Shown here: positions 21,421 through 42,348 of the stretch, piece after piece
How the letters are laid out: each line of letters begins with the position of its first letter
Numbering within the stretch: position 1 is the first letter of the stretch
Virus genome (UHGV): UHGV-0382128
Direction: 5' to 3' (one strand)
DNA from: a virus
DNA: 64,000 nucleotides
Notes under the pieces: model-generated
The model's input: the letters and a program-made list of their open reading frames with translations, nothing else
Databases searched by the model: none
Told to the model about the DNA's origin: nothing
Position numbers and translations under genes: made by a program

Positions 21421-21879
21421 TCAGTACAAACACGATGTCAAGTATTGGTTATACGAATCGAGCAGTGCCTGACGGTCGGAACGGTAATTCCACAACAAAT
21501 TATTGAGTTTACGCGATAAATCACGGCTAATCTCCTGGGCCGTTAAAGAGCTCTCATCAAGAAACATGCGCTCAGGTACAACGTGTAATTTCGGTAACTC
21601 ATAGCGTTCACAAAGTGGAGCCAACATTGGTGGACTCCAGCCACGTTTAGCGGCTTGCTGGTTTAAATTTCGTGTGTAGACATAAACGTAATAAGCATAG
21701 GTGTTGACATCTGCAACATACTCACGCATTGCATTCTTGTCAATTTTCCAATTCACCATTATTGGCGGTTCAGGAGGAAGTTCCAGTGGTCTATAAGCTG
21801 GACGTTTAACTTCGTCACCGTAGCTATTACTCACCAACCCCACGAACACTACCATGATGAATAATAGCATTTTCATCAA
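21421..21879 (-). CDS. secreted Pro-rich protein with Sec signal peptide
   Basis: N-terminus MMKMLLFIMVVFVGLVSNSYG then PLELPPEPP; no lipobox Cys. Confidence 0.5.
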   Translation of the reverse strand: MMKMLLFIMVVFVGLVSNSYGDEVKRPAYRPLELPPEPPIMVNWKIDKNAMREYVADVNTYAYYVYVYTRNLNQQAAKRGWSPPMLAPLCERYELPKLHVVPERMFLDESSLTAQEISRDLSRKLNNLLWNYRSDRQALLDSYNQYLTSCLY

Positions 21880-22383
21880 TCACTCCTTAGAAGACGATAG
21901 CGTCTTTATGATCTCCTGTCGAAAACTGTTCGCGTTTAAATTACCAACAGGTCTCGCCGAAGCCTCTTTACGTTGTTCTGGTGTTGAAGCCGGATTAACA
22001 GGAGTTTCTGGTTTTGCCGAGGACAGATCCTTCGTCGTACCGCTCGCTTTCGATGAATTAAACGTGCTTTCATATGGCGGTTTCTGGCCGAGGCAAACGA
22101 AGAGTCTGTCGTATAACTTATCATTATCTTCTTTTAGTTTATCTCGATCTTGTTTCATCTCTTGGTAAGACTGTGACATATAAGTGTCATGAGACTGCAC
22201 TGCAACGAGCGCGTGAAACTGTTGTACATAGGCGTAGGAGACGAAGCCAGAATACGACAACAAGATCGTGATGATTAAAGTCATTATCTTGCTTGCTCTT
22301 GATACGTTTTCTCCTTCTCCTGGTTTAAATGCTTCCATTAACATCTGAAGGAAGAACGGAAGCACTTTAAAAAATGAACCCAT
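21880..22383 (-). CDS. membrane-anchored coiled-coil protein
   Basis: TM helix IMTLIITILLSYSGFVSYAYV followed by charged coiled-coil; immediately upstream of the secreted Pro-rich protein. Confidence 0.5.
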   Translation of the reverse strand: MGSFFKVLPFFLQMLMEAFKPGEGENVSRASKIMTLIITILLSYSGFVSYAYVQQFHALVAVQSHDTYMSQSYQEMKQDRDKLKEDNDKLYDRLFVCLGQKPPYESTFNSSKASGTTKDLSSAKPETPVNPASTPEQRKEASARPVGNLNANSFRQEIIKTLSSSKE

Positions 22384-26605: not shown

Positions 26606-27115
26606 TTAGAAGAACGGCTGGTTTGGAATGACAGCGTACTCTAAAATGAACATGTGTTCTGGGGCGTCTTCTTTACGCCAGACTTTGTGTGTCGACACAA
26701 GTTTTTCCAGAATCGTTAAGAAACTGCGCTGGCAGTATGTGTTTTCACCAAGCAGTAGATTTTGAAGTTCTACAGTAGCGTCCATATACGCCTGTTTAAA
26801 GACTAAATTACGGTTATACTGCCCGGTAAAATTCCAAAGCAAGACTTTCCCTTCTTCGGTTTCTTTTACCGTTGGTCGTAAACCACAAATCCACAGTAAG
26901 GCAAGGTTGACGTTCCAGTCAAACTCTAAACCTTCTTCTTCGTCATCACCGAATGCTGTGGGTAAAGCATCGTAAAATTCGTGTTTCTCTGCGAATTCTT
27001 CATCCGACTTAATCTCGTCTTCGATACTGCTTCGGACGATACTGTAAACGTCTTTCGCGGTCAATTGTGCGGCTTTTGTAATGCCTTTATACCAATCGGT
27101 TACTACGATGCTCAA
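26606..27115 (-). CDS. hypothetical protein (169 aa)
   Basis: ORF track; ATGA overlap with upstream gene. Confidence 0.5.
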   Translation of the reverse strand: MSIVVTDWYKGITKAAQLTAKDVYSIVRSSIEDEIKSDEEFAEKHEFYDALPTAFGDDEEEGLEFDWNVNLALLWICGLRPTVKETEEGKVLLWNFTGQYNRNLVFKQAYMDATVELQNLLLGENTYCQRSFLTILEKLVSTHKVWRKEDAPEHMFILEYAVIPNQPFF

Positions 27116-27810
27116 AGGGTAACTCCTCTATTGATTGGAAAACTCGTGTTTATCGTATCCCAAATTCTACTAACTTCCGCCAGTTGAATCTGACGTGGTG
27201 TTTTCTTCGCAAACGCAAGCTGACGTGGGGCCGAGCCCACAACAACAGGCACATCGATTTTCGCGCTATAGAACGCGGCGTCTTTCATAAAGCCTGCCAT
27301 TTCTCGTTGTGCTGCTCGAGATTTGCTTTTGATTCGCGTGTGAGCGCCACTTTCACCCCAGTGGTAAGCTAACGCAATTTCAGCCATGGTGGGCTTGCGT
27401 TTGAGTCGTTTGGTTAACCCCCTCTCAAGATGTTTAACATACGCGGCAGCCAGCAAAACAGCATTACGCGGATTATATAAATCGGCGTTCTGACTAAGAC
27501 CTAATTCTTTTCCATAAAGCCTTAGCAGATTACGCTTGGTACTTGGAAGCATCTGTACCAGGCTGTGTGCTCGTGAGCTTTTGTTGTAAGCCTTGGGATC
27601 AAAACGTGATTCGCGATAAATCAGCGTAATCATCAGCTTAGGATCAACGCCTTGCTTTCGTGAGATTTCCACAATTAACGGGCTGACTTTTTCGAACCGA
27701 TGTTGGATTTGTGCAAACTCACGCTGATGCTTAGAATGTGGCGTTGACGTTGACGCCTGTGCGTTAAACGCGAAAAGTGTTACCAGTAAAAGAAAGAAGA
27801 TACGAAACAT
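27112..27810 (-). CDS. lytic transglycosylase (SLT domain) with Sec signal peptide; candidate endolysin
   Basis: start moved to MFRIFFLLLVTLFAFNAQAS (GGAG SD upstream); SLT catalytic region YRESRFDPKAYNKSSRAHSLVQMLPST. Confidence 0.7.
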   Translation of the reverse strand: MFRIFFLLLVTLFAFNAQASTSTPHSKHQREFAQIQHRFEKVSPLIVEISRKQGVDPKLMITLIYRESRFDPKAYNKSSRAHSLVQMLPSTKRNLLRLYGKELGLSQNADLYNPRNAVLLAAAYVKHLERGLTKRLKRKPTMAEIALAYHWGESGAHTRIKSKSRAAQREMAGFMKDAAFYSAKIDVPVVVGSAPRQLAFAKKTPRQIQLAEVSRIWDTINTSFPINRGVTL

Positions 27811-27910
27811 TTTGTTTCTCCAGTTGGATTTATACATTTCCGTATTCCGTAAGACGAAATGACGGCGCGGACAGCTAATACTCCTTTGTTGTGTGCCCTA
27901 ATGATAATAT

Positions 27911-28471
27911 CTATTTAAAAGAGTTTGGAATTAATGACTCTGCTTCTTGGTACAACTTATCAGGTAAGTATAACGTGTAGCACTGCCTCCTCGGTTCAAG
28001 TTTTTTGTAAAGCCACAAAAAGATTTCTTGTCTTTCCCAGGAATCTAACCACCCATTTGCCATTCCCAGTGGAGGGATAGCAACGCTGGTATTCAGATCC
28101 TCAGCACAGTCTGCTAGTGCGCTAATGCCCGCAGTAACATAAGAAACCTGTGACTTTAAACGCCAATGGGTTTTCGTGGGGAGCAAGATACACTTTTCAT
28201 CAGAGTAAACGTAAACGCTTCCAATCTTAATTTCGTCTTCACGACACCGCTTACGATAATCCTGATAAAGGTTGGGGTAGCGTTCACGGCACGCCAGTGC
28301 AATACCGCGACCCATCGCTCCTACGCAGTTAATGGTAACGACTTTATAGTCTTCGGGTGCATTAAAAAGATCGTTACCAATTTCAGATTCTTTACGTACC
28401 GTTAACATAACGAAACGTCCGGAGTTGGTGTGTAGTATTAAAACGTGTACCGCCGATTGATAGCTCGACAA
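27911..28471 (-). CDS. macro-domain-like protein (186 aa)
   Basis: VVTINCVGAMGRGIALA and SVAIPPLGMANGW resemble macro-domain VVNAAN..GGGV..AI and SIAFPAISTGVYG motifs. Confidence 0.45.
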   Translation of the reverse strand: MSSYQSAVHVLILHTNSGRFVMLTVRKESEIGNDLFNAPEDYKVVTINCVGAMGRGIALACRERYPNLYQDYRKRCREDEIKIGSVYVYSDEKCILLPTKTHWRLKSQVSYVTAGISALADCAEDLNTSVAIPPLGMANGWLDSWERQEIFLWLYKKLEPRRQCYTLYLPDKLYQEAESLIPNSFK

Positions 28472-29903: not shown

Positions 29904-30089
29904 CTAATTCCGCCATTCGCATTCGCGTTGACGCCAAATTGAACCCCACGATAGTTTAATCAGATAAGATGAAACTACCCATAAAATCATCACCACACAA
30001 AACATGACATAAAGAACCGCTAGAATGGACATGAAGCCAAACCCTGCCGCATCCACAATACGACGGAACCAATCAGTTTGCATAAACAA
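29904..30089 (-). CDS. small membrane protein (61 aa)
   Basis: ORF track; hydrophobic core FGFMSILAVLYVMFCVVMILWVV; start overlaps end of the Rad50-like gene. Confidence 0.3.
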   Translation of the reverse strand: MFMQTDWFRRIVDAAGFGFMSILAVLYVMFCVVMILWVVSSYLIKLSWGSIWRQRECEWRN

Positions 30090-32577
30090 TTTTTACTCCT
30101 TCGTTATACACCGCAGGCAATGTCACTCCTTCCGGTTCGATGACACAGTACGATGCTTCATTAAGTTTAGAATGGACCTCAGCTTCGTGGGAAACTACCA
30201 AGAGTTGTGAAAATTCTCCCGAGTTTGCTAACGTTTTAATAAAGCCGACCAGGTTATTACGGTGTTCCTCGTCCATGCCTTCCGAAGGCTCATCCAAAAG
30301 CAACGGAAACTGATGCAACTTCAGCGCTTTGTACGCAGTCAGTCTGAACATCAGATTAAATATAGCACGCTGTGCCTTAGACCCTTTACGCACGTCAGGA
30401 ACAGGCTCAGGGTGCGTTTTTAGCTGGACAGGAAAAGTATAATCCAAATCGCCGTCAGTGAGATCACAGGGCATAACACGCATGGGGTACGTCCAGACCT
30501 GTTCGATATAACGCGTCATTAACTCTGTGATTCTAACGATAGCGTTGTAAAAATACTTTCTAAGTACACCCTTTTCTGGCGAGAAGGCTTGAATCATCAG
30601 TTTGTTATTGAACTGCTGGGCTTGTAAGTCAGCAAGTTCACGTTCCAAACTGTTGAGTTGGTTCAATTCATTTTCCATCTGACGATAACGCTCGCGTGCG
30701 GTTGTAAAAGCATCCAGCTTCCCTTCCCGCACTCGTAAGAGTTCCTCGACGACCGTATTTGTCAACGTAACCTTAACATCACTCTCTAACCGTTCGAATA
30801 ACGCACTGAAATCATCTACAGCACGTTTAACATTCACTAGATAGGTAAGTGTCGTGTTAGCCAGTTCGTGCTCTCTACGACGCATTGAGAGCATCTCTGT
30901 GGCTTTACCTAATCGCGACTGTTGGAAGGCGATTTTCTGTTGTAAAGCACCATCGACGTTACCAACGGCCGCTACGGCATCCTGCCATTCTTTTTCCGCT
31001 TTCACTAACCGTTGTCGGGTTTCATGGTACTCAATAGCAGAGTACAATTCACCGTCAAACGCTGCACATAGACTCCCGAACTGCTCGCGAGATTCTGTGA
31101 AAACGTTACGTTCTTGCAAACGCTTAAAGAACATGCTCAATATCGGGTCCTTTGAATACGTCAGCACAATCTCACGAACCTGCCGCATATAAGTTACATC
31201 AGATTCTAATTCAACACGATCGCGTAATAAGGTCTCTAGCTGTGTTTGAAGTTCCGTCCGTTGCTGCTGTTGACCACGAATCGATGACTCGAGTTCAGGT
31301 AAAGAACGCGTAACACCTGGCCGAAACTTAAACCGACACTGCGGACAATCCACTTCTGCCGTTTCTAAGTAGTGGTTACGTTCGTGATTTAAATTCTGTA
31401 AAACGTTCTCCACTCGCTGGAGTCTATCCCGTAATCCTGCGGTTTTTTGATCCATCACCAGAAGACGTTCTTCCAAAACATTGAGTTTCTCGGTTGAATG
31501 AATAGCGTCCAGTGTTGTTCCCAACCGTTGTCCCCAAACACGCGCATCGGTAGCCGCACGAAGTTGGTCTAAATTAACGTTATCGTTAAATAAACCTGGA
31601 AAGAGATGTTCGGTGTCCCACTTGGTAAGTAACTCACGTAAACGTGCCAGTGTGTTCTTGAGACCTTCGTGGTTCCGCATCAGGTAGTCTTGTCGTGTTG
31701 ACTCATCCATCAATAGCGATAAATCTTTATTCAACATCGATACCTCTGTTTCGGTAGAAACGACGGCTTCGCGGGCTGTCGCTTCATTTTGTCGGGCGGC
31801 CAGTATCTGTTCATCAGTAGGCAACCCACCACGATGTTGTAATATTGCGTCGATGGTTGGACCCAAACCGTTTAATAACGCTTGGATTGTTTCGATCGTG
31901 ACAGCACGATTTAATCCTGGCAACTGTTCGATTTCTCGGTTCAGTTCACGTAAATCCGATTCCAAACCTTTTAATCTCGTTGCTAATTGTTGTCGTTCTT
32001 CCTCGTTCTCAATAACGCGCGTCCGTAATTCGGCAATCTTACGACTGGTGATTTCAATACCTCCATTTAAGGCGGTAAGGTTTTTACGCAAACGTTGATA
32101 AAACCCTAACGCGTATGTGAGATCAGAGGTACTTAAACGGTAAAACCATTTACGGCGTAATTCGGTTCCCGCTTCGGTTAACAAAACCTCACCATTTAAT
32201 AGTTCTTTAATTTCTTTCGTAATACCCGTGATTTCTTCAACACGAGAGTTGTAGACCTTCGCATTACCTTGCTCGACGATCTTTGCTCCCGTGGTCAGAT
32301 TTTCAATATCGCAAACCAAAGAGTTACCTTTACGGGCAACTTTGAATCGATACCGTTGATCACCAACTAAACAGTAGTTCGTGTAAGAACCGCCGTCTCT
32401 GAATTCAGTTTTAGCCGGTGCTAAGGGTAAGAATACAGACAGTAGACTGGTTTTCCCGCAACCGTTCCCACCTAGGATAATTGTTGTTGGAGACTGGATA
32501 GTGAAATCGAAAGTTTCAATTTCATGTAATCCCATCCCCGTAAAACCTTTGAGTATAATGCGTTCAACTTTTAGCAT
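30073..32577 (-). CDS. Rad50/SbcC-like SMC-family ATPase (T4 gp46-like) with CPxC zinc hook
   Basis: Walker A GGNGCGKTSLL, central coiled-coil with VDCPQCRF hook, Walker B LLLDEPSEGMD, H-loop VVSHEAEV; start moved to MLKVERI with GGAGGTGGGT SD. Confidence 0.65.
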   Translation of the reverse strand: MLKVERIILKGFTGMGLHEIETFDFTIQSPTTIILGGNGCGKTSLLSVFLPLAPAKTEFRDGGSYTNYCLVGDQRYRFKVARKGNSLVCDIENLTTGAKIVEQGNAKVYNSRVEEITGITKEIKELLNGEVLLTEAGTELRRKWFYRLSTSDLTYALGFYQRLRKNLTALNGGIEITSRKIAELRTRVIENEEERQQLATRLKGLESDLRELNREIEQLPGLNRAVTIETIQALLNGLGPTIDAILQHRGGLPTDEQILAARQNEATAREAVVSTETEVSMLNKDLSLLMDESTRQDYLMRNHEGLKNTLARLRELLTKWDTEHLFPGLFNDNVNLDQLRAATDARVWGQRLGTTLDAIHSTEKLNVLEERLLVMDQKTAGLRDRLQRVENVLQNLNHERNHYLETAEVDCPQCRFKFRPGVTRSLPELESSIRGQQQQRTELQTQLETLLRDRVELESDVTYMRQVREIVLTYSKDPILSMFFKRLQERNVFTESREQFGSLCAAFDGELYSAIEYHETRQRLVKAEKEWQDAVAAVGNVDGALQQKIAFQQSRLGKATEMLSMRRREHELANTTLTYLVNVKRAVDDFSALFERLESDVKVTLTNTVVEELLRVREGKLDAFTTARERYRQMENELNQLNSLERELADLQAQQFNNKLMIQAFSPEKGVLRKYFYNAIVRITELMTRYIEQVWTYPMRVMPCDLTDGDLDYTFPVQLKTHPEPVPDVRKGSKAQRAIFNLMFRLTAYKALKLHQFPLLLDEPSEGMDEEHRNNLVGFIKTLANSGEFSQLLVVSHEAEVHSKLNEASYCVIEPEGVTLPAVYNEGVKIVYAN

Positions 32578-32630
32578 ACCCACCTCCATAAAGACGGAGT
32601 GTGGTGTAAAAAGAAAAAAAAATAGAGAAA

Positions 32631-32652
32631 GGGAGAACCCGAAGGTTCTCCC
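32631..32652 (-). terminator. rho-independent terminator
   Basis: hairpin gggagaacc-cgaa-ggttctccc preceded on plus strand by A10 run. Confidence 0.55.
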
Positions 32653-32657
32653 AAACG

Positions 32658-33266
32658 TTATTTGGTATATGGGTGATAACCCATTGAAGTCCAATAATCG
32701 ATGTTCTTTGTGTTTTCTACCCAAACCTGTCCCGCTTTTGTGGCCAAGACTTCCATTGTCAGTGCACAGATCAGGTTTGTTACCGGAATGCAATTTCCTG
32801 GCGTAACGTCGTCCAGATAAACCGGGTATAAAAACGGTGATTTAATGGATTGGTACGGATAAGAATAGTGATTGCCGACCTTCCACCCTTCCTCTACAGG
32901 ACAGAGATTAAACGTACGTGTTTCTGGAACTGCGTTTTCAGAGATCCAGTTAACAACATCGGCTTTAATTCGGTCGTGGTCGATATAGTAGAACACGACA
33001 CGTTGTGGGATACTTGTGGTACCAGCCGGGTCTAAAGCCTCCAACGCCTTGAAAGGCGTCGTTAACAATGTTGAACTGTTCTCAAGTGCGTAAACCAATT
33101 TTTCGTAAGCAGTCGGCGTTTTACGTTTAAAATACTCCCGTAAGCGTGGATACGCCAGGAAGCCCTCTACTTCCTCTTCCATTAAGTCGATGAATAAAGG
33201 CGTATGCGAAAAACGCTCTGCATTTTGCATCGCTTCAAGAAAACGAACTAATGTAATTTCGTTCAT
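32658..33266 (-). CDS. hypothetical protein (202 aa)
   Basis: ORF track. Confidence 0.5.
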   Translation of the reverse strand: MNEITLVRFLEAMQNAERFSHTPLFIDLMEEEVEGFLAYPRLREYFKRKTPTAYEKLVYALENSSTLLTTPFKALEALDPAGTTSIPQRVVFYYIDHDRIKADVVNWISENAVPETRTFNLCPVEEGWKVGNHYSYPYQSIKSPFLYPVYLDDVTPGNCIPVTNLICALTMEVLATKAGQVWVENTKNIDYWTSMGYHPYTK

Positions 33267-33799: not shown

Positions 33800-33837
33800 T
33801 TTAATACTCCTTTAGGTAAAACATGTCGTAAAAAGGA

Positions 33838-33854
33838 CCCCGGACGTTCCGGGG
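33838..33854 (-). terminator. rho-independent terminator
   Basis: hairpin ccccgga-cgt-tccgggg preceded on plus strand by AAAAAGGA. Confidence 0.5.
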
Positions 33855-33866
33855 CCAAGACTACAC

Positions 33867-34256
33867 TCAATGTTCTAATTCGATAGCGCCAGCCATCTTG
33901 CCCCGTTCTTCGATAACGATCAGATAACGGTCGCGAGATTTGCTTTTAGCGAGAGTTAAGACAACAGTAGGGTCGCACGTTTTCGTGGTGATAGGAAGAA
34001 CCTCTCTTGCAACGGAATCGAGTAGAAAGTAATAACCTGCGGGACACATTGTGCCGCCATCAGCTTTTACCAGAATATAGCGCCCGTCTGCGCCGACTTC
34101 TTGGCAGATTGTTTCACCGACTTCACAAACTTCAAACCCCGGGGGATTGTACTGATAATCGGTATTGTTGTTTGAGGTTAGCAGTAAATCATTAACCTGG
34201 GTAGATGCCGCTACACTCAGGGAGAAGAAGAATGCTAAAGCGCAGATGAGACGCAT
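33867..34256 (-). CDS. secreted small Cys-containing protein (129 aa), secreted-array member 1
   Basis: signal peptide MRLICALAFFFSLSVAAS; shares Cys pattern and YILVKADGG/YVFIVEQGG core with 34267..34677. Confidence 0.5.
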   Translation of the reverse strand: MRLICALAFFFSLSVAASTQVNDLLLTSNNNTDYQYNPPGFEVCEVGETICQEVGADGRYILVKADGGTMCPAGYYFLLDSVAREVLPITTKTCDPTVVLTLAKSKSRDRYLIVIEERGKMAGAIELEH

Positions 34257-34266
34257 GAGTTACTCC

Positions 34267-34677
34267 TTAAATTTTAAGTTTATCCATAGCTACAACGATA
34301 GGTTTTTCCGAAGTGTCTAATATCCCTACCATCGGTACACCATTTTTGATTTCGAAGAACGGTTTGTTATTGCCAGAGCACAAACGTTTGTCGTTGTATT
34401 CGAGACGTTGTGCCTTCCACGTTTCGAGGTTGAGTACGGACATAGGGCTGTCGTAGCACCAGGCCCCACCCTGCTCAACGATGAACACGTATCTGCTACC
34501 TTTGTATTTAAACAGGCTCTTCGCCTGACAGTACAGACCGTCAATTTCTGTACAGTAGAAATCGTCGGTACTATTGACGTACTTAATTCCAGCTGGCAAT
34601 TGTGTTATTTTTGCTGATACGTTAACAGAGAACAGAATAGCAATTGCAATGAGAAGAGTGTTGATGATAGTTTTCAT
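34267..34677 (-). CDS. secreted small Cys-containing protein (136 aa), secreted-array member 2
   Basis: signal peptide MKTIINTLLIAIAILFSVNVSA. Confidence 0.5.
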   Translation of the reverse strand: MKTIINTLLIAIAILFSVNVSAKITQLPAGIKYVNSTDDFYCTEIDGLYCQAKSLFKYKGSRYVFIVEQGGAWCYDSPMSVLNLETWKAQRLEYNDKRLCSGNNKPFFEIKNGVPMVGILDTSEKPIVVAMDKLKI

Positions 34678-34687
34678 GATAAACTCC

Positions 34688-35173
34688 TTAGTATTTAGAT
34701 TGTTCTACGTACTTCTTAACCAGATAACCGAATTCAGCAACGCCGATTTCGCCGAACCAAACCAGATAACCGGGGTCGATGTTGTAGTAATAACCGACGA
34801 GTTTCTTGGTGTGTGGGTTGTATAGCGTTACGATATATTCCCAGCCACAAGCGTTAGCTTTACAGCCACCACTTTCAATCCAGATTTTGTTGTTGATATT
34901 TACCGGATACATGTTACCGCCAGGGCCATCCATGTAACCTTTAGAGCCGAACATTCCATCCAGCCCCACCGGATCTAGTGTTTTATCAACAACACCTTTA
35001 AATGACTTATCGGTATCGTACAAGTCGTTGATGTTTGGACACGCATTTGGCTGACCTTCCCGAGCGTTCCCATCGCAGGTAAGTAATTCGTCTACGGAGG
35101 CCGCATCTACAGTAGGTGTGGCACCGATAAACAAGAAAACCAGAAAGAACATCAGTGTATGTAAACGTTTCAT
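34688..35173 (-). CDS. secreted protein (161 aa), secreted-array member 3
   Basis: signal peptide MKRLHTLMFFLVFLFIGATPTVDA. Confidence 0.5.
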   Translation of the reverse strand: MKRLHTLMFFLVFLFIGATPTVDAASVDELLTCDGNAREGQPNACPNINDLYDTDKSFKGVVDKTLDPVGLDGMFGSKGYMDGPGGNMYPVNINNKIWIESGGCKANACGWEYIVTLYNPHTKKLVGYYYNIDPGYLVWFGEIGVAEFGYLVKKYVEQSKY

Positions 35174-35191
35174 TGTGACTACTCCTTTAGA

Positions 35192-35584
35192 TTATTCAGC
35201 AGGACGATTTAAAGTAACTCGGCCAATTAATTCGGAGTTATGAAAGAAGTCCACAGCGGTATAGTTACCAACTGATAACGGATGTATGCTAACCGACATG
35301 ACTTTTGGTTGTTCACAGGCGATATCGGTCAAACGTTGGTAGACTTGTGCACGGGTGTCAGCAATGAGTAATCCTGTACATGTTTCACCACGTACTAAAC
35401 GATAAACTTGCAGTTTACCGAAACTGCGCATTAACGTAGGTGTCTCATCCGGGTTGATAATCGGTGAGTCAGGAGCGGGTTCGTAATGGTTGACATCCGA
35501 ACCGCCGAAAGCGTAAGTGCCAGTAATGCCGATTGCACAGAAAACAATGATAGTATAAAGTATAGTTCTAATATTCATTTTCAC
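35192..35584 (-). CDS. secreted protein (130 aa), secreted-array member 4
   Basis: signal peptide MKMNIRTILYTIIVFCAIGITGTYA. Confidence 0.5.
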   Translation of the reverse strand: MKMNIRTILYTIIVFCAIGITGTYAFGGSDVNHYEPAPDSPIINPDETPTLMRSFGKLQVYRLVRGETCTGLLIADTRAQVYQRLTDIACEQPKVMSVSIHPLSVGNYTAVDFFHNSELIGRVTLNRPAE

Positions 35585-35606
35585 GCACTCTAAAAAAGAT
35601 TAATAC

Positions 35607-36068
35607 TTATTTGTTAGGACGGGTGTGTCCACAGTTCTGGAAGAAAGTTTCAGATAGACGTTCGCCTTCTACGGTAAAGTTAGCGGCGTCATTACCATTG
35701 ATACTCACGCTGAAATTTTTGGCATTACCGATAGCATTAACGAAAGCAACCCAAGCGAGTTCTGCTTTGTCACTACCATCCACGGTAGGGATGTTATAGG
35801 TTTTGCCGTTTACGACAATATCCATCGTGTTATCTTCAGCGTTAGTTGCACCTACAGGTTCCCCGTAATACCAAACCATGCGACCGTAAAATTTGCGATT
35901 CGCGGTTTCAGTGTCACAGTTGATAGACAGTCCGTTTCCGGTGGTGTCTTCGATTTCGTAAACTGCCTGACCAGGGTTCTGTATTTGTTCCCAGCTGTTG
36001 ATAGCGGCGTGTGCAGTATTGAATCCGAAAGTTAAAATGGTTACTAAGAACGCGATAAAAGTTTTCAT
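35607..36068 (-). CDS. secreted protein (153 aa), secreted-array member 5
   Basis: start moved to MKTFIAFLVTILTFGFNTAHA (AAGGAG SD upstream). Confidence 0.5.
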   Translation of the reverse strand: MKTFIAFLVTILTFGFNTAHAAINSWEQIQNPGQAVYEIEDTTGNGLSINCDTETANRKFYGRMVWYYGEPVGATNAEDNTMDIVVNGKTYNIPTVDGSDKAELAWVAFVNAIGNAKNFSVSINGNDAANFTVEGERLSETFFQNCGHTRPNK

Positions 36069-36114: not shown

Positions 36115-36486
36115 TTAAATGAGAAAGTGGGCAACTCTTTTAATCTGTCTATAACTATCATCGATACCTCTTATTATTTCCAGACGTTCTTCTGAAGAAA
36201 GGCATTGGTTAATGTCTTTGTCAAGATTGAACAATGTCATGAGTTTTGCAATCGAAACTGCCAGGTTGTCCGATAGCTCGTTGTTTTTACGCCATTCTTC
36301 GTTACGGAAAATACAGATAAGGTCTTTCACCTGGTTTTCAGCGAGCGGTTTGGCTAACTGTGCGTCGCGCTGTTCGAGAAGGTATGCTTCGTTGGTAAGT
36401 AATTGTTTCAGGTCTTCTGGGTAAAGGGCAGCGCGAGTAACGATCAGTAATACAACAAACGGGTCTTTGAACAATTCGTTTTTCAT
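36115..36486 (-). CDS. hypothetical protein (123 aa)
   Basis: start moved to MKNELFKDPF with AGGAGAACTAAAG SD; the annotated longer ORF runs into an upstream hairpin. Confidence 0.45.
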   Translation of the reverse strand: MKNELFKDPFVVLLIVTRAALYPEDLKQLLTNEAYLLEQRDAQLAKPLAENQVKDLICIFRNEEWRKNNELSDNLAVSIAKLMTLFNLDKDINQCLSSEERLEIIRGIDDSYRQIKRVAHFLI

Positions 36487-36515: not shown

Positions 36516-36537
36516 GTGAGAGTAACTGAACTCTCAC
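36516..36537. other. hairpin immediately preceding 21-nt conserved element copy 1
   Basis: gtgagag-taactgaa-ctctcac inverted repeat. Confidence 0.4.
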
Positions 36538-36538
36538 C

Positions 36539-36559
36539 TAAGTAATATATATCTGAAAT
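36539..36559. repeat. 21-nt AT-rich conserved element copy 1 (taagtaatatatatctgaaat)
   Basis: identical 21-mer also at 40921..40941, same orientation, both directly downstream of a hairpin. Confidence 0.6.
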
Positions 36560-36590
36560 TATTTTTAATGTTGACGAACAAAAAATAAAA

Positions 36591-36610
36591 GGTGGGGGTA
36601 AACCCCCACC
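36591..36610 (-). terminator. rho-independent terminator
   Basis: hairpin ggtgggggt-aaa-cccccacc preceded on plus strand by AAAAAATAAAA. Confidence 0.55.
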
Positions 36611-36614
36611 GACG

Positions 36615-37193
36615 TTATACATCGAACCGATACTGCCGGGAGTTAATGAGGAACTCAGTATTCAGCTCAATCCATTCGAGTAAATCCCCCAACGGTAATC
36701 GGTTTGGGTTTTCTAACTCGATAGATGCAACCGGATAAGAGTTTACTAATTCCGTAATCGCCTCAATGCCCTCTTGCGTTCCATCGTCTTCTAAGGTGAT
36801 TGTAAACGGCATATCGGTACGTTCCGCATTAGGATTGTACAAACTGACTTTCGTTGCTTGCACAAACGCAGTCAGGTCGTCTCGCATAATGCGAATATCT
36901 GGCGCTAGAACTACCCAGAGATGTTGCCCTGGCTGGAGTTTACGTTTTGCGTAGTTTACGAAAGGACTTGCCGTCAAGTTATCTAAACCACAACAGATGT
37001 TACGTAAACGAATTCCGCGCGGATCTTTGTAATCCACGTCGAAAATCCCCACAGGTTCATTCGCTGCCCGCTTTATCAGAAAGGCTAATACCGTGTCCGC
37101 TCTTTCTGGTAAGGAAAGCTCTATTCCCTCAAGCTCCCCATCGACGAGATTTTCTAACCAAACGTCTTTTCGCATTTCTATTAATCGGTACAC
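36615..37193 (-). CDS. hypothetical protein (192 aa)
   Basis: ORF track. Confidence 0.5.
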   Translation of the reverse strand: MYRLIEMRKDVWLENLVDGELEGIELSLPERADTVLAFLIKRAANEPVGIFDVDYKDPRGIRLRNICCGLDNLTASPFVNYAKRKLQPGQHLWVVLAPDIRIMRDDLTAFVQATKVSLYNPNAERTDMPFTITLEDDGTQEGIEAITELVNSYPVASIELENPNRLPLGDLLEWIELNTEFLINSRQYRFDV

Positions 37194-40833: not shown

Positions 40834-40886
40834 GATCTGTCTCCCCAAATGGTTTAATCAATCCGTTTCGAATGAAACGTGTCCGT

Positions 40887-40911
40887 AGGGGCTGAACTGG
40901 CACTTCAGCCC
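40887..40911. other. hairpin immediately preceding 21-nt conserved element copy 2
   Basis: ggggctgaa-ctggcac-ttcagcccc (9-bp stem). Confidence 0.45.
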
Positions 40912-40920
40912 CTATTCACT

Positions 40921-40941
40921 TAAGTAATATATATCTGAAAT
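40921..40941 (+). promoter_or_regulatory. 21-nt AT-rich conserved element copy 2, candidate promoter or 5' UTR element for 40967..41932
   Basis: identical to 36539..36559; 25 nt upstream of the ATG of the first plus-strand gene after the long minus block. Confidence 0.4.
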
Positions 40942-40966
40942 CAATTCCGATCTAAGGAACGTCCCG

Positions 40967-42138: not shown

Positions 42139-42348
42139 ATGTCTATTAAAGAGTTCTCTTCTGCTGAGCATATTCCAGAAGAGTTTAAGAAAATCGGTAA
42201 CGTCAGCGCTTTCGGCGATACCGTTGATCATGTAACTGGTAAACTGGCTGCTGAAGCCGAAAAAATTGGTGGTGACGCATTCAAAGTTATCGGTATTTCC
42301 GGCAACAACAAACTGCACGGTAACGCGATTGTCTACAAAAAAGACTAA
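42139..42348 (+). CDS. DUF1471 (YhcN/BhsA/YdgH-like) domain protein without signal peptide (69 aa)
   Basis: GNVSAFGDTVDHVTGKLAAEAEKIGGDAFKVIGISGNNKLHGNAIVYKK matches the enterobacterial DUF1471 pattern; start at Met 7 of the ORF (GGAGAG SD). Confidence 0.55.
   Translation: MSIKEFSSAEHIPEEFKKIGNVSAFGDTVDHVTGKLAAEAEKIGGDAFKVIGISGNNKLHGNAIVYKKD

Follow-up and report, generated by a model that had tools for sequence, protein, structure and literature searches.

The 64,000-nucleotide window analysed in this work, from the UHGV virus genome UHGV-0382128, contains an array of five consecutive small genes on its minus strand, between positions 33867 and 36068, each encoding a protein that begins with a predicted Sec-type signal peptide. 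In order of position these are P1, an exported four-cysteine beta protein of 129 amino acids (33867-34256); P2, of the same type, with 136 amino acids and a match to phrog_8968 (34267-34677); P3, an exported divergent Ivy-family protein of 161 amino acids with four cysteines and the loop C104-K-A-N-A-C109 (34688-35173); P4, an exported protein of 128 amino acids with two cysteines and a match to phrog_9424 (35192-35578); and P5, an exported YfjT/YkfB-family protein of 153 amino acids, with two cysteines in its mature part, which starts at an internal ATG of a longer open reading frame (ORF; 35607-36068). All five ORFs lie where the original prediction had placed them, and its length range of 129-161 amino acids holds for P1, P2, P3 and P5. 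P4 was listed as a 130-amino-acid ORF with a GTG start (35192-35584), but contains an ATG two codons inside; as its orthologues align from that ATG, the start was corrected, giving 128 amino acids. AAGGAG ribosome-binding sites precede P1, P2, P3 and P5. In comparisons with four related phages, the ratio of nonsynonymous to synonymous substitution rates (dN/dS) was 0.05-0.20 for each of the five genes, with similar values for flanking genes. Hence the array genes are real, and under purifying selection.

Export was predicted with a custom scan, the rules of which required a basic n-region, then an h-region that is hydrophobic and free of charges, and finally a small-x-small cleavage site; it was applied to the 79 non-overlapping ORFs of the window. 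Nine of these were positive, including all five array genes; given this frequency, a run of at least five consecutive positives would occur by chance with p ~4e-4. Predicted cleavage sites (marked here by a slash) in the array include VSA/K, VDA/A and AHA/A, the signal peptide ending at NVSA/KITQ in P2, GTYA/FGGS in P4 and NTAHA/AINS in P5. That of P3, MKRLHTLMFFLVFLFIGATPTVDA/ASVD, also passes the scan and is conserved in 14 homologues. The earlier call of a Sec-type signal peptide on every member was therefore reproduced in five of five cases, and the feature is kept in orthologues from 21 related loci. The scan detected no further membrane segment in any of the five proteins, and direct reading of their sequences revealed no lipobox, such that none is a lipoprotein. 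The mature parts contain an even number of cysteines in every case, with four in each of P1 and P2 and, as had been remarked of the last three members, further cysteines in P3, P4 and P5 (four, two and two respectively). In alignments with relatives, the cysteine columns are conserved in pairs. The combination of conserved cysteines with an export signal fits disulfide-bonded periplasmic proteins.

The array is predicted to belong to a single transcription unit, consisting of a promoter, a sixth gene (ORF6), P5, P4, P3, P2, P1 and a terminator. The intrinsic terminator after P1, at 33836-33856 (minus strand), has a 9-bp stem with seven G-C pairs followed by a T-run (-16.9 kcal/mol, z -3.0). 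Another, at 36591-36610 (minus strand), has an 8-bp stem, again with seven G-C pairs and a subsequent T-run (-17.7 kcal/mol, z -3.8), and follows the 192-amino-acid gene at 36615-37193, the last of the upstream operon. The terminators originally thought to bracket the array are therefore both genuine, but the second ends the neighbouring operon, and the hairpin region to which it was assigned (36516-36610) is only in part a terminator. The remainder comprises a promoter-like motif, AATTTCAGATATATATTAC-N6-G, at 36535-36560 (minus strand), with a predicted transcription start near 36535, and a stem-loop at the predicted 5' end of the transcript, at 36517-36536 (minus strand), which has a 7-bp stem (-9.3 kcal/mol) and a z of only -1.3. 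The 41-nucleotide stretch holding the motif is 100% identical in the Erwinia phages phiEaH2 and Stratton, although there is otherwise almost no DNA similarity. Exact copies of TTTCAGATATATATTAC-N6-G occur only twice in the window, at 36535-36560 and 40917-40942, where chance would produce none; both are on the minus strand, and both precede minus-strand operons. The second copy is followed, at about 40885-40914, by a hairpin stronger than that at 36517-36536 (-19.8 kcal/mol, z -3.4).

This motif matches the predicted promoters of phiKZ (TATATTAC), 201phi2-1, OBP and N1M2 (PMC7058600 Table 2), as well as the experimentally-mapped early consensus of AR9, AAATATATATTAT-N6-G, recognised by the RNA polymerase that the virion injects (PMC5312081); an early-promoter consensus is also given in PMC11512511. 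As the motif belongs to this phiKZ/AR9 early class, the operon is inferred to be early, with the injected virion RNA polymerase transcribing it as soon as infection has occurred. A scan for sigma-70 promoters was uninformative, as shuffled sequence yielded more sites. The first gene of the operon, ORF6 (36115-36486, minus strand), encodes 123 amino acids that lack a signal peptide, and matches phrog_27024. It is taken to start at the ATG at 36486, because the listed GTG at 36537 is upstream of the predicted transcription start; the homologue in one relative (L009) begins MKNELF. The matches of ORF6 to the T4 y05I-like N-terminal domain (Pfam, E 0.021) and to AbiA (PADLOC, E 2e-4) are weak.

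Sequence comparisons divide the five array proteins into three unrelated families: a four-cysteine beta domain, the Ivy-like P3 and the YfjT/YkfB-like P5. The first includes P1, P2 and 'B', a paralogue found in related phages. Their grouping follows from profile comparisons (95% for P1-P2, 98% for P2-B and 92% for P1-B), from concordant cross-hits between PHROG families, and from the four cysteine columns conserved across a 22-sequence alignment; the proposal that P1 and P2 are paralogues with a shared cysteine pattern is thereby borne out. P4 matched the P1 family in profile comparison (51%, E 1.5e-4), and its PHROG family, phrog_9424, cross-matches that of P1, phrog_5248. Hence it is probably a member of the same family that lacks the first cysteine pair. 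Neither P3 nor P5 showed any relationship to this family, or to each other, in profile comparisons. The four-cysteine family is rare. An exhaustive hidden Markov model (HMM) search of 1.84 billion representatives, with a profile of P1 and its close relatives alone, found 14 proteins, two of them long multi-stretch matches; the proteins inspected, from among the others, were small and exported, with the same cysteine pattern, and none of the 14 was annotated. A word-indexed protein search with P1 recovered close relatives only (five matches), and structural matches of the four-cysteine core were confined to related jumbo phages. P1, P2 and P4 share neither a fold nor a profile match with the PliC/MliC, PliG and PliI inhibitors.

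Two more distant links of the four-cysteine family are probable remote homologies. The first is to the YfjS/YafY domain, with which profile comparison gave 46% (E 2e-4) and the HMM score of 14.9 bits exceeded the highest from 5000 shuffles, 10.9; the common motif is G-x-C-x-x-G-x-Y-Y-x-L-x-D...P...C. None of the 22 aligned members matched the corresponding Pfam entry, PF20494, at E up to 10. The lipobox L-[AS]-[GA]-C was absent from the end of the h-region in P1, P2 and P4, the N-terminal cysteines of which are not conserved in orthologues. The second link is to a Klebsiella protein annotated as Ivy, in which an Ivy-like domain (loop CEQGNC) is joined by a Pro/Ala linker to a 130-amino-acid domain with four cysteines, spaced 7/21/23 compared with 7/20/23 in P1. 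The four-cysteine profile aligned to this C-terminal domain over 86 columns with all four cysteines in register (52.6%, E 1.4e-4), and the HMM score was 8.4 bits against a best of 8.3 in 5000 shuffles, a thin margin.

The first clue to the identity of P3 was an invariant C-K-x-x-x-C-G-W segment in its family, which resembles the Ivy loop CKPHDC. A profile of the 14 P3 homologues aligned to E. coli Ivy (in a sequence agreeing with structures 1GPQ and 1XS0) with the loop in register (44%, E 2e-4). Pfam Ivy was the sole family matched repeatedly by the P3 family, with nine of the 14 members hitting it, all below threshold; P3 itself had no Pfam match (PF08816), and scored 18 bits against the NCBIfam Ivy model (NF007443; E 0.0018), relative to a cut-off of 180. 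Klebsiella plasmid proteins bearing the annotation 'Ivy family c-type lysozyme inhibitor' were recovered in a tblastn search with P3 (E 3e-10), in an almost full-length alignment at 26% identity. One of these was matched by the P3 profile at 99.2% (E 7e-20), and scores 23.9 bits with Pfam Ivy, for which the cut-off is 21. The Ivy fold and homology of P3 are therefore regarded as secure. Its loop has the length and the cysteine and lysine positions of that of Ivy, is in register with CKPHDC, and is inferred to be closed by a disulfide. The loop alleles in the P3 family are CKANAC (in the window), CKSNAC, CKANTC and CKSDAC, with CKAHAC only in the E. coli proteins P0019, P0020 and P0025. No P3 homologue was found among 50,697 GenBank phage records.

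P5 is assigned to the YfjT/YkfB family. Homologues 91-93% identical to it carry a precomputed match to Pfam PF27224 (YfjT), and P5 itself aligns across 130 residues with YkfB of E. coli K-12 at 27% identity (E 1e-12 against a small database, and 2e-6 in a tblastn search), and is likewise 27% identical to homologues on IncHI plasmids. Residues C51, C146, W26 and W106 are invariant in the family. An immunoglobulin fold for P5 was considered and rejected, as its only matches in the PDB, of a '...TI.CTG...' segment with lambda chains of antibodies, are attributed to chance.

The window represents a jumbo phage of enterobacteria. Its known relatives include SPN3US (Seoulvirus) and phiEaH2 (Erskinevirus), with which it shares short DNA matches only but clear protein synteny; its closer relatives are metagenomic contigs of 220-228 kb. 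Across 21 loci, the array is always two genes upstream of an SMC/SbcC-like gene, and has the order F4, a variable slot, F2 and F1, in which F4, F2 and F1 stand for the P4, P2 and P1 families. The variable slot takes one of three forms, with a four-cysteine paralogue, an Ivy-like gene or no gene at all: it is occupied by 'B' in SPN3US and phiEaH2, is empty in ChrisDB and Caitlin, is also empty in Wellington, which has an extra F1 copy, and contains P3 in the clade of the window, in which the array is extended at its 5' end by P5, present once or twice, and/or by ORF6. P4 orthologues are present in all related phages, and the core of the array is conserved across SPN3US/phiEaH2-like phages. In SPN3US its genes are gp180-gp183, on which a literature search found no publication and nothing functional. 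The 5' end of the operon is polymorphic, with ORF6 only in L009, from which P5 is absent, P5 only in L007, and both in the window and L023, while L016 and L018 contain two tandem YfjT-like genes of 151 and 156 amino acids. Two further sequences keep synteny with the window both within the array and on either side of it: an Enterobacter ludwigii 'plasmid unnamed1' of 222,441 bp (L019; NZ_CP134650.1), and a 223 kb contig of a Salmonella assembly (L017; GCA_008966875.1). Both look like related jumbo-phage genomes, deposited as a plasmid and a bacterial contig respectively, which suggests that phages of this group commonly occur in a carrier state or as contaminants.

The nearest non-phage relatives of both P3 and P5 are on CP4-type genomic islands and plasmids of Enterobacteriaceae, and these relationships place the origin of both genes in the gene pool of the CP4-type islands. 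E. coli chromosomes encode, within such islands, P3 homologues 57-65% identical to that of the window, between a group encoding a dynamin-like GTPase, YjcZ and patatin, and the DUF932, antirestriction, RadC and CbeA-CbtA genes. PADLOC returned only weak LeoBC and phospholipase matches for the GTPase, YjcZ and patatin neighbours, hence no defined defence system can be claimed at this locus. The P3 allele of L007 is 62% identical to that of the window, but 85-92% identical to two 223-amino-acid proteins, P0024 and P0026, which are probably bacterial, since they share an N-terminal extension with P0028 of E. coli. That a phage allele is closer to these probable bacterial forms than to the allele of another phage points to repeated exchange of P3 between phages and host islands. 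In the E. coli loci L012-L015 (7098-8483), the P3-like gene follows one for a 180-amino-acid exported protein, and the long forms of P3 (223-227 amino acids; P0024, P0028 and P0029) begin with an in-frame fusion to the N-terminal 65 residues of this neighbour, and probably reflect truncation, fusion or mis-called starts. The 180-amino-acid neighbour was tried as a candidate four-cysteine protein and rejected, as 274 of 5000 shuffles scored equally well.

In CP4-6, the gene order is GTPase, DUF932, YpjK, the YfjS/YafY lipoprotein, YkfB, DUF905 and antirestriction, and the slot holding YpjK-YafY-YkfB is that occupied in Klebsiella plasmids by the Ivy-annotated fusion. This fusion was observed in L067 (NZ_CP084804.1, 214465-215538) and three other plasmids, within a CP4-type module running from the GTPase and WYL genes to DUF905. 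If the two remote homologies of the four-cysteine family are real, then all three array families correspond to genes that share one CP4-type slot, and one natural protein joins two of them. Searches of the literature on YfjT, and on YafY, YfjS and YkfB, found nothing functional.

The favoured interpretation of the array, to which a probability of roughly 0.45 is given, is that it encodes an early periplasmic battery which neutralises peptidoglycan-cleaving enzymes, most likely those of incoming phages. Transcription of the operon by the injected virion polymerase would begin directly on infection, and the products would be exported by Sec and oxidised in the periplasm. The cysteine-bridged loop of P3 would then bind the active-site cleft of lysozyme-like peptidoglycan glycosidases, as that of Ivy does, the likeliest targets being the domains, of lytic transglycosylase or lysozyme type, with which other phages breach the wall. 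Infected cells would thereby become refractory to superinfection, and to lysis from without, as is the case with T4 Spackle. The four-cysteine proteins and P5 probably have related envelope-protective roles, through guilt by association only; this association follows from P3 occupying the slot of a four-cysteine paralogue, and from the Klebsiella fusion joining both types of domain. The superinfection exclusion or lysis control originally suggested for the array was a generic proposal, but the Ivy fold and loop of P3, in combination with the early-type promoter, fit either of these through inhibition of muralytic enzymes. The receptor masking and interference with envelope defence suggested along with them gained no direct support, although they may still apply.

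This interpretation is favoured because of the early-type promoter, and the published background on Ivy, Spackle and the CKANTC loop. Ivy and MliC inhibit C-type lysozyme, and the Ivy proteins of Pseudomonas aeruginosa inhibit the lytic transglycosylase MltB in vitro (PMC10139938). The early periplasmic protein Spackle of T4 blocks the gp5 tail lysozyme of superinfecting phage, resulting in superinfection exclusion (PMC7677548). Knockdown of Hypo_04657 in E. coli O121, a protein with an Ivy-like domain and a CKANTC loop, reportedly raised the fitness and plaquing of T7, and the authors of the preprint proposed that it inhibits phage lysozyme (PHAGEPACK, bioRxiv 10.1101/2024.04.20.590424).

Several observations count against this interpretation. 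Firstly, P3 falls below the curated Ivy thresholds of both Pfam and NCBIfam, and only one of five AlphaFold models of it was confident. Secondly, P3 has an asparagine in place of the histidine in the Ivy loop, which occupies the lysozyme active site, and the proline and aspartate of the loop are also replaced, such that inhibition of C-type lysozyme by P3 should not be assumed. Thirdly, SPN3US-like phages entirely lack P3, hence the conserved core does not need an Ivy-like member in order to work. Fourthly, the links of the four-cysteine family to YafY and the Klebsiella C-terminal domain are weak (profile probabilities of 46% and 53%), and the only evidence for early timing is a motif match. 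Finally, E. coli Ivy is a weak inhibitor of E. coli MltA and MltB, with no in vivo effect in one study (PMC10139938). A broader version of the proposal is speculative, and unlikely: that the array is a battery of inhibitors with multiple specificities, in which the four-cysteine domain of P1, P2, P4 and gp180-183 is a new class of lytic transglycosylase or lysozyme inhibitor, and that the related YafY, YkfB and Ivy-like modules on large plasmids and CP4-type islands of Enterobacteriaceae form a widespread, unrecognised barrier to phage entry through the cell wall, captured by jumbo phages for early superinfection exclusion.

The alternative that survives best, although unlikely, is that the array controls the phage's own lysis, with the exported proteins, and P3 especially, holding a Sec-exported endolysin inactive in the periplasm until a trigger is received, so setting the time of lysis or permitting lysis inhibition. 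The window encodes such an enzyme at 27112-27837 (minus strand), a protein of 241 amino acids with a strongly hydrophobic and apparently cleavable signal peptide (...FNAQA/STST) and a Pfam SLT domain (E 5e-14), annotated as an endolysin or transglycosylase and located ~8 kb from the array core in every phage that has one. With such an enzyme exported by Sec, it has to be explained why lysis does not come too early, and a fully exported transglycosylase needs some restraint. Ivy proteins can inhibit a lytic transglycosylase in vitro (PMC10139938), and control of MltF, a lytic transglycosylase of P. aeruginosa, by a periplasmic inhibitor and anti-inhibitor has been described (PMC10746161). However, SPN3US, phiEaH2 and the Erwinia phages encode the SLT protein but not P3, which therefore cannot be an essential regulator of it; no co-occurrence of P3 with the exported SLT endolysin was found, as the latter is present in the whole SPN3US/phiEaH2/Erwinia jumbo-phage clade. 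Furthermore, the promoter of the array is of an early type, whereas functions in lysis tend to be late, there is no evident mechanism of release, and the P3 homologues of E. coli islands have no phage endolysin to regulate.

It is rather unlikely that the array proteins bring about superinfection exclusion or envelope remodelling by a route that does not involve peptidoglycan hydrolases, such as binding receptors, porins, Tol/Ton or components of DNA entry from the periplasm, or countering an envelope defence. Early periplasmic or membrane proteins of this kind are known, with T5 Llp an example (PMC9586334), and four of the five array proteins have no fold or family that indicates muramidase inhibition. 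The gain, loss and duplication of P5 at the 5' end, the exchangeable middle slot and the swapping of P3 alleles are all typical of genes involved in conflicts. Nevertheless, none of the five has a lipobox or second membrane segment, PADLOC detected no similarity to known exclusion or defence proteins, and searches of Pfam, the PDB and a viral structure library produced no informative match, while the sole member with an assignable fold indicates muramidase inhibition.

A still less probable explanation is protection from attack by something other than phages, for example gut lysozyme, type VI muramidase effectors of neighbouring bacteria or bacteriocins, enabling the cell to survive the long jumbo-phage cycle, with P3 and P5 being captured host genes that have kept their host function. 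It draws on the derivation of these two genes from a host island and plasmid gene pool, on the enteric nature of both the metagenome samples and host genomes, and on the classical role of Ivy in resistance to animal lysozyme (PMC10139938). Yet the core of P4, P2 and P1 is phage-specific and rare, the four-cysteine search returning just 14 relatives; the phage P3 allele has lost the histidine that plugs lysozyme; and the sole experimental hint for this Ivy-like branch concerns phage infection.

Finally, it is very improbable that the N-terminal segments are uncleaved membrane anchors, or that the ORFs are not expressed, leaving no periplasmic battery: the export call does depend on a simple set of rules, but every h-region is followed by a small-x-small site, the N-terminal feature persists in all orthologues at 30-50% sequence identity, the conserved cysteine columns are paired, Ivy and the YfjT/YkfB family, the relatives of P3 and P5, are exported proteins, and the genes show strong purifying selection and ribosome-binding sites.

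Other features of the window were recorded alongside the array. A divergent early-type motif, TTTTAAATAGATATTAT, nearer to the OBP/N1M2 consensus, is present at 27904-27920 (minus strand), ~70 nucleotides upstream of the exported SLT gene; if this copy were functional, the transglycosylase would be made early, which is unexpected for an endolysin. Two adjoining minus-strand ORFs, at 21421-21879 (152 amino acids) and 21880-22383 (167 amino acids), have signal-peptide-like N-termini in the scan, in the second case only from an internal methionine. Neither has a Pfam or NCBIfam match, and they may be further envelope or lysis proteins. The ORF listed for the SMC/SbcC-like gene, with a TTG start (30073-32793, minus strand; 906 amino acids), is probably overlong, given that relatives have 834 amino acids and the extension overlaps a 202-amino-acid gene at 32658-33266. 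A small plus-strand ORF at ~42139-42348 (MSIKEFSSAEHIPEE..., ~69 amino acids) has a homologue in relatives with a Pfam YdgH_BhsA-like match. Members of that family are normally exported stress proteins, whereas this copy lacks a signal peptide.

That phages can encode periplasmic proteins for exclusion or inhibition is, in general terms, already known, and the known periplasmic superinfection-exclusion proteins come from a few model phages, as single genes in each. Here, by contrast, exported proteins are encoded throughout a clade of giant phages in an ordered operon that follows an early-type promoter, and in one lineage a slot of that operon has been taken by a gene related to that of a known muramidase inhibitor. 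The findings put an Ivy-like protein into a phage genome, provide the first concrete and testable handle on gp180-183 of SPN3US, and link the YfjT/YkfB, YfjS/YafY and CKANTC Ivy-like genes of CP4-type islands to conflicts at the cell wall, both between phages, and between phages and their hosts. If the inhibitor idea is true, the array would represent a layer of defence acting before DNA entry, and a source of new protein inhibitors of lytic transglycosylases. If it is false, nucleus-forming phages still offer, in this array, a clean group of candidates for functions directed at the envelope.

Among the closest known counterparts of the array are gp180-gp183 of SPN3US and their orthologues in phiEaH2, Asesino, ChrisDB and Wellington, all annotated as hypothetical. 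These are orthologous to P4, P2 and P1 of the window, sharing their order, genome position and signal peptides, but have 'B' or nothing at the place of P3, and lack P5. The resemblance of P3 to Ivy (PF08816; PDB 1GPQ, 1XS0 and 1UUZ) extends to export, a similar size, a six-residue loop with two cysteines and a lysine in second position at the same place in the alignment, and a significant sequence link to proteins that pass the Pfam Ivy threshold. The two differ in that P3 is only 14-15% identical to the solved Ivy proteins, has the loop CKANAC rather than CKPHDC and an extra N-terminal pair of cysteines (C33 and C45), and is encoded by phages and CP4-type islands rather than the chromosomal ivy locus. 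YfjT/YkfB and YfjS/YafY, from CP4-57 and CP4-6 of E. coli K-12, are neighbours in these islands as their relatives are in the phage, although YfjS/YafY proteins are lipoproteins, whereas the phage four-cysteine proteins lack a lipobox. Hypo_04657 has a CKANTC loop, exactly that of E. coli homologues 57-64% identical to P3, with which it was matched by loop motif and family, rather than by its sequence; it is, however, a host gene that acts against phage, not a phage gene. Lastly, T4 Spackle, the small periplasmic product of an early phage gene, is a functional analogy to the array only, and is encoded by a single gene, where the array comprises five genes of three families.

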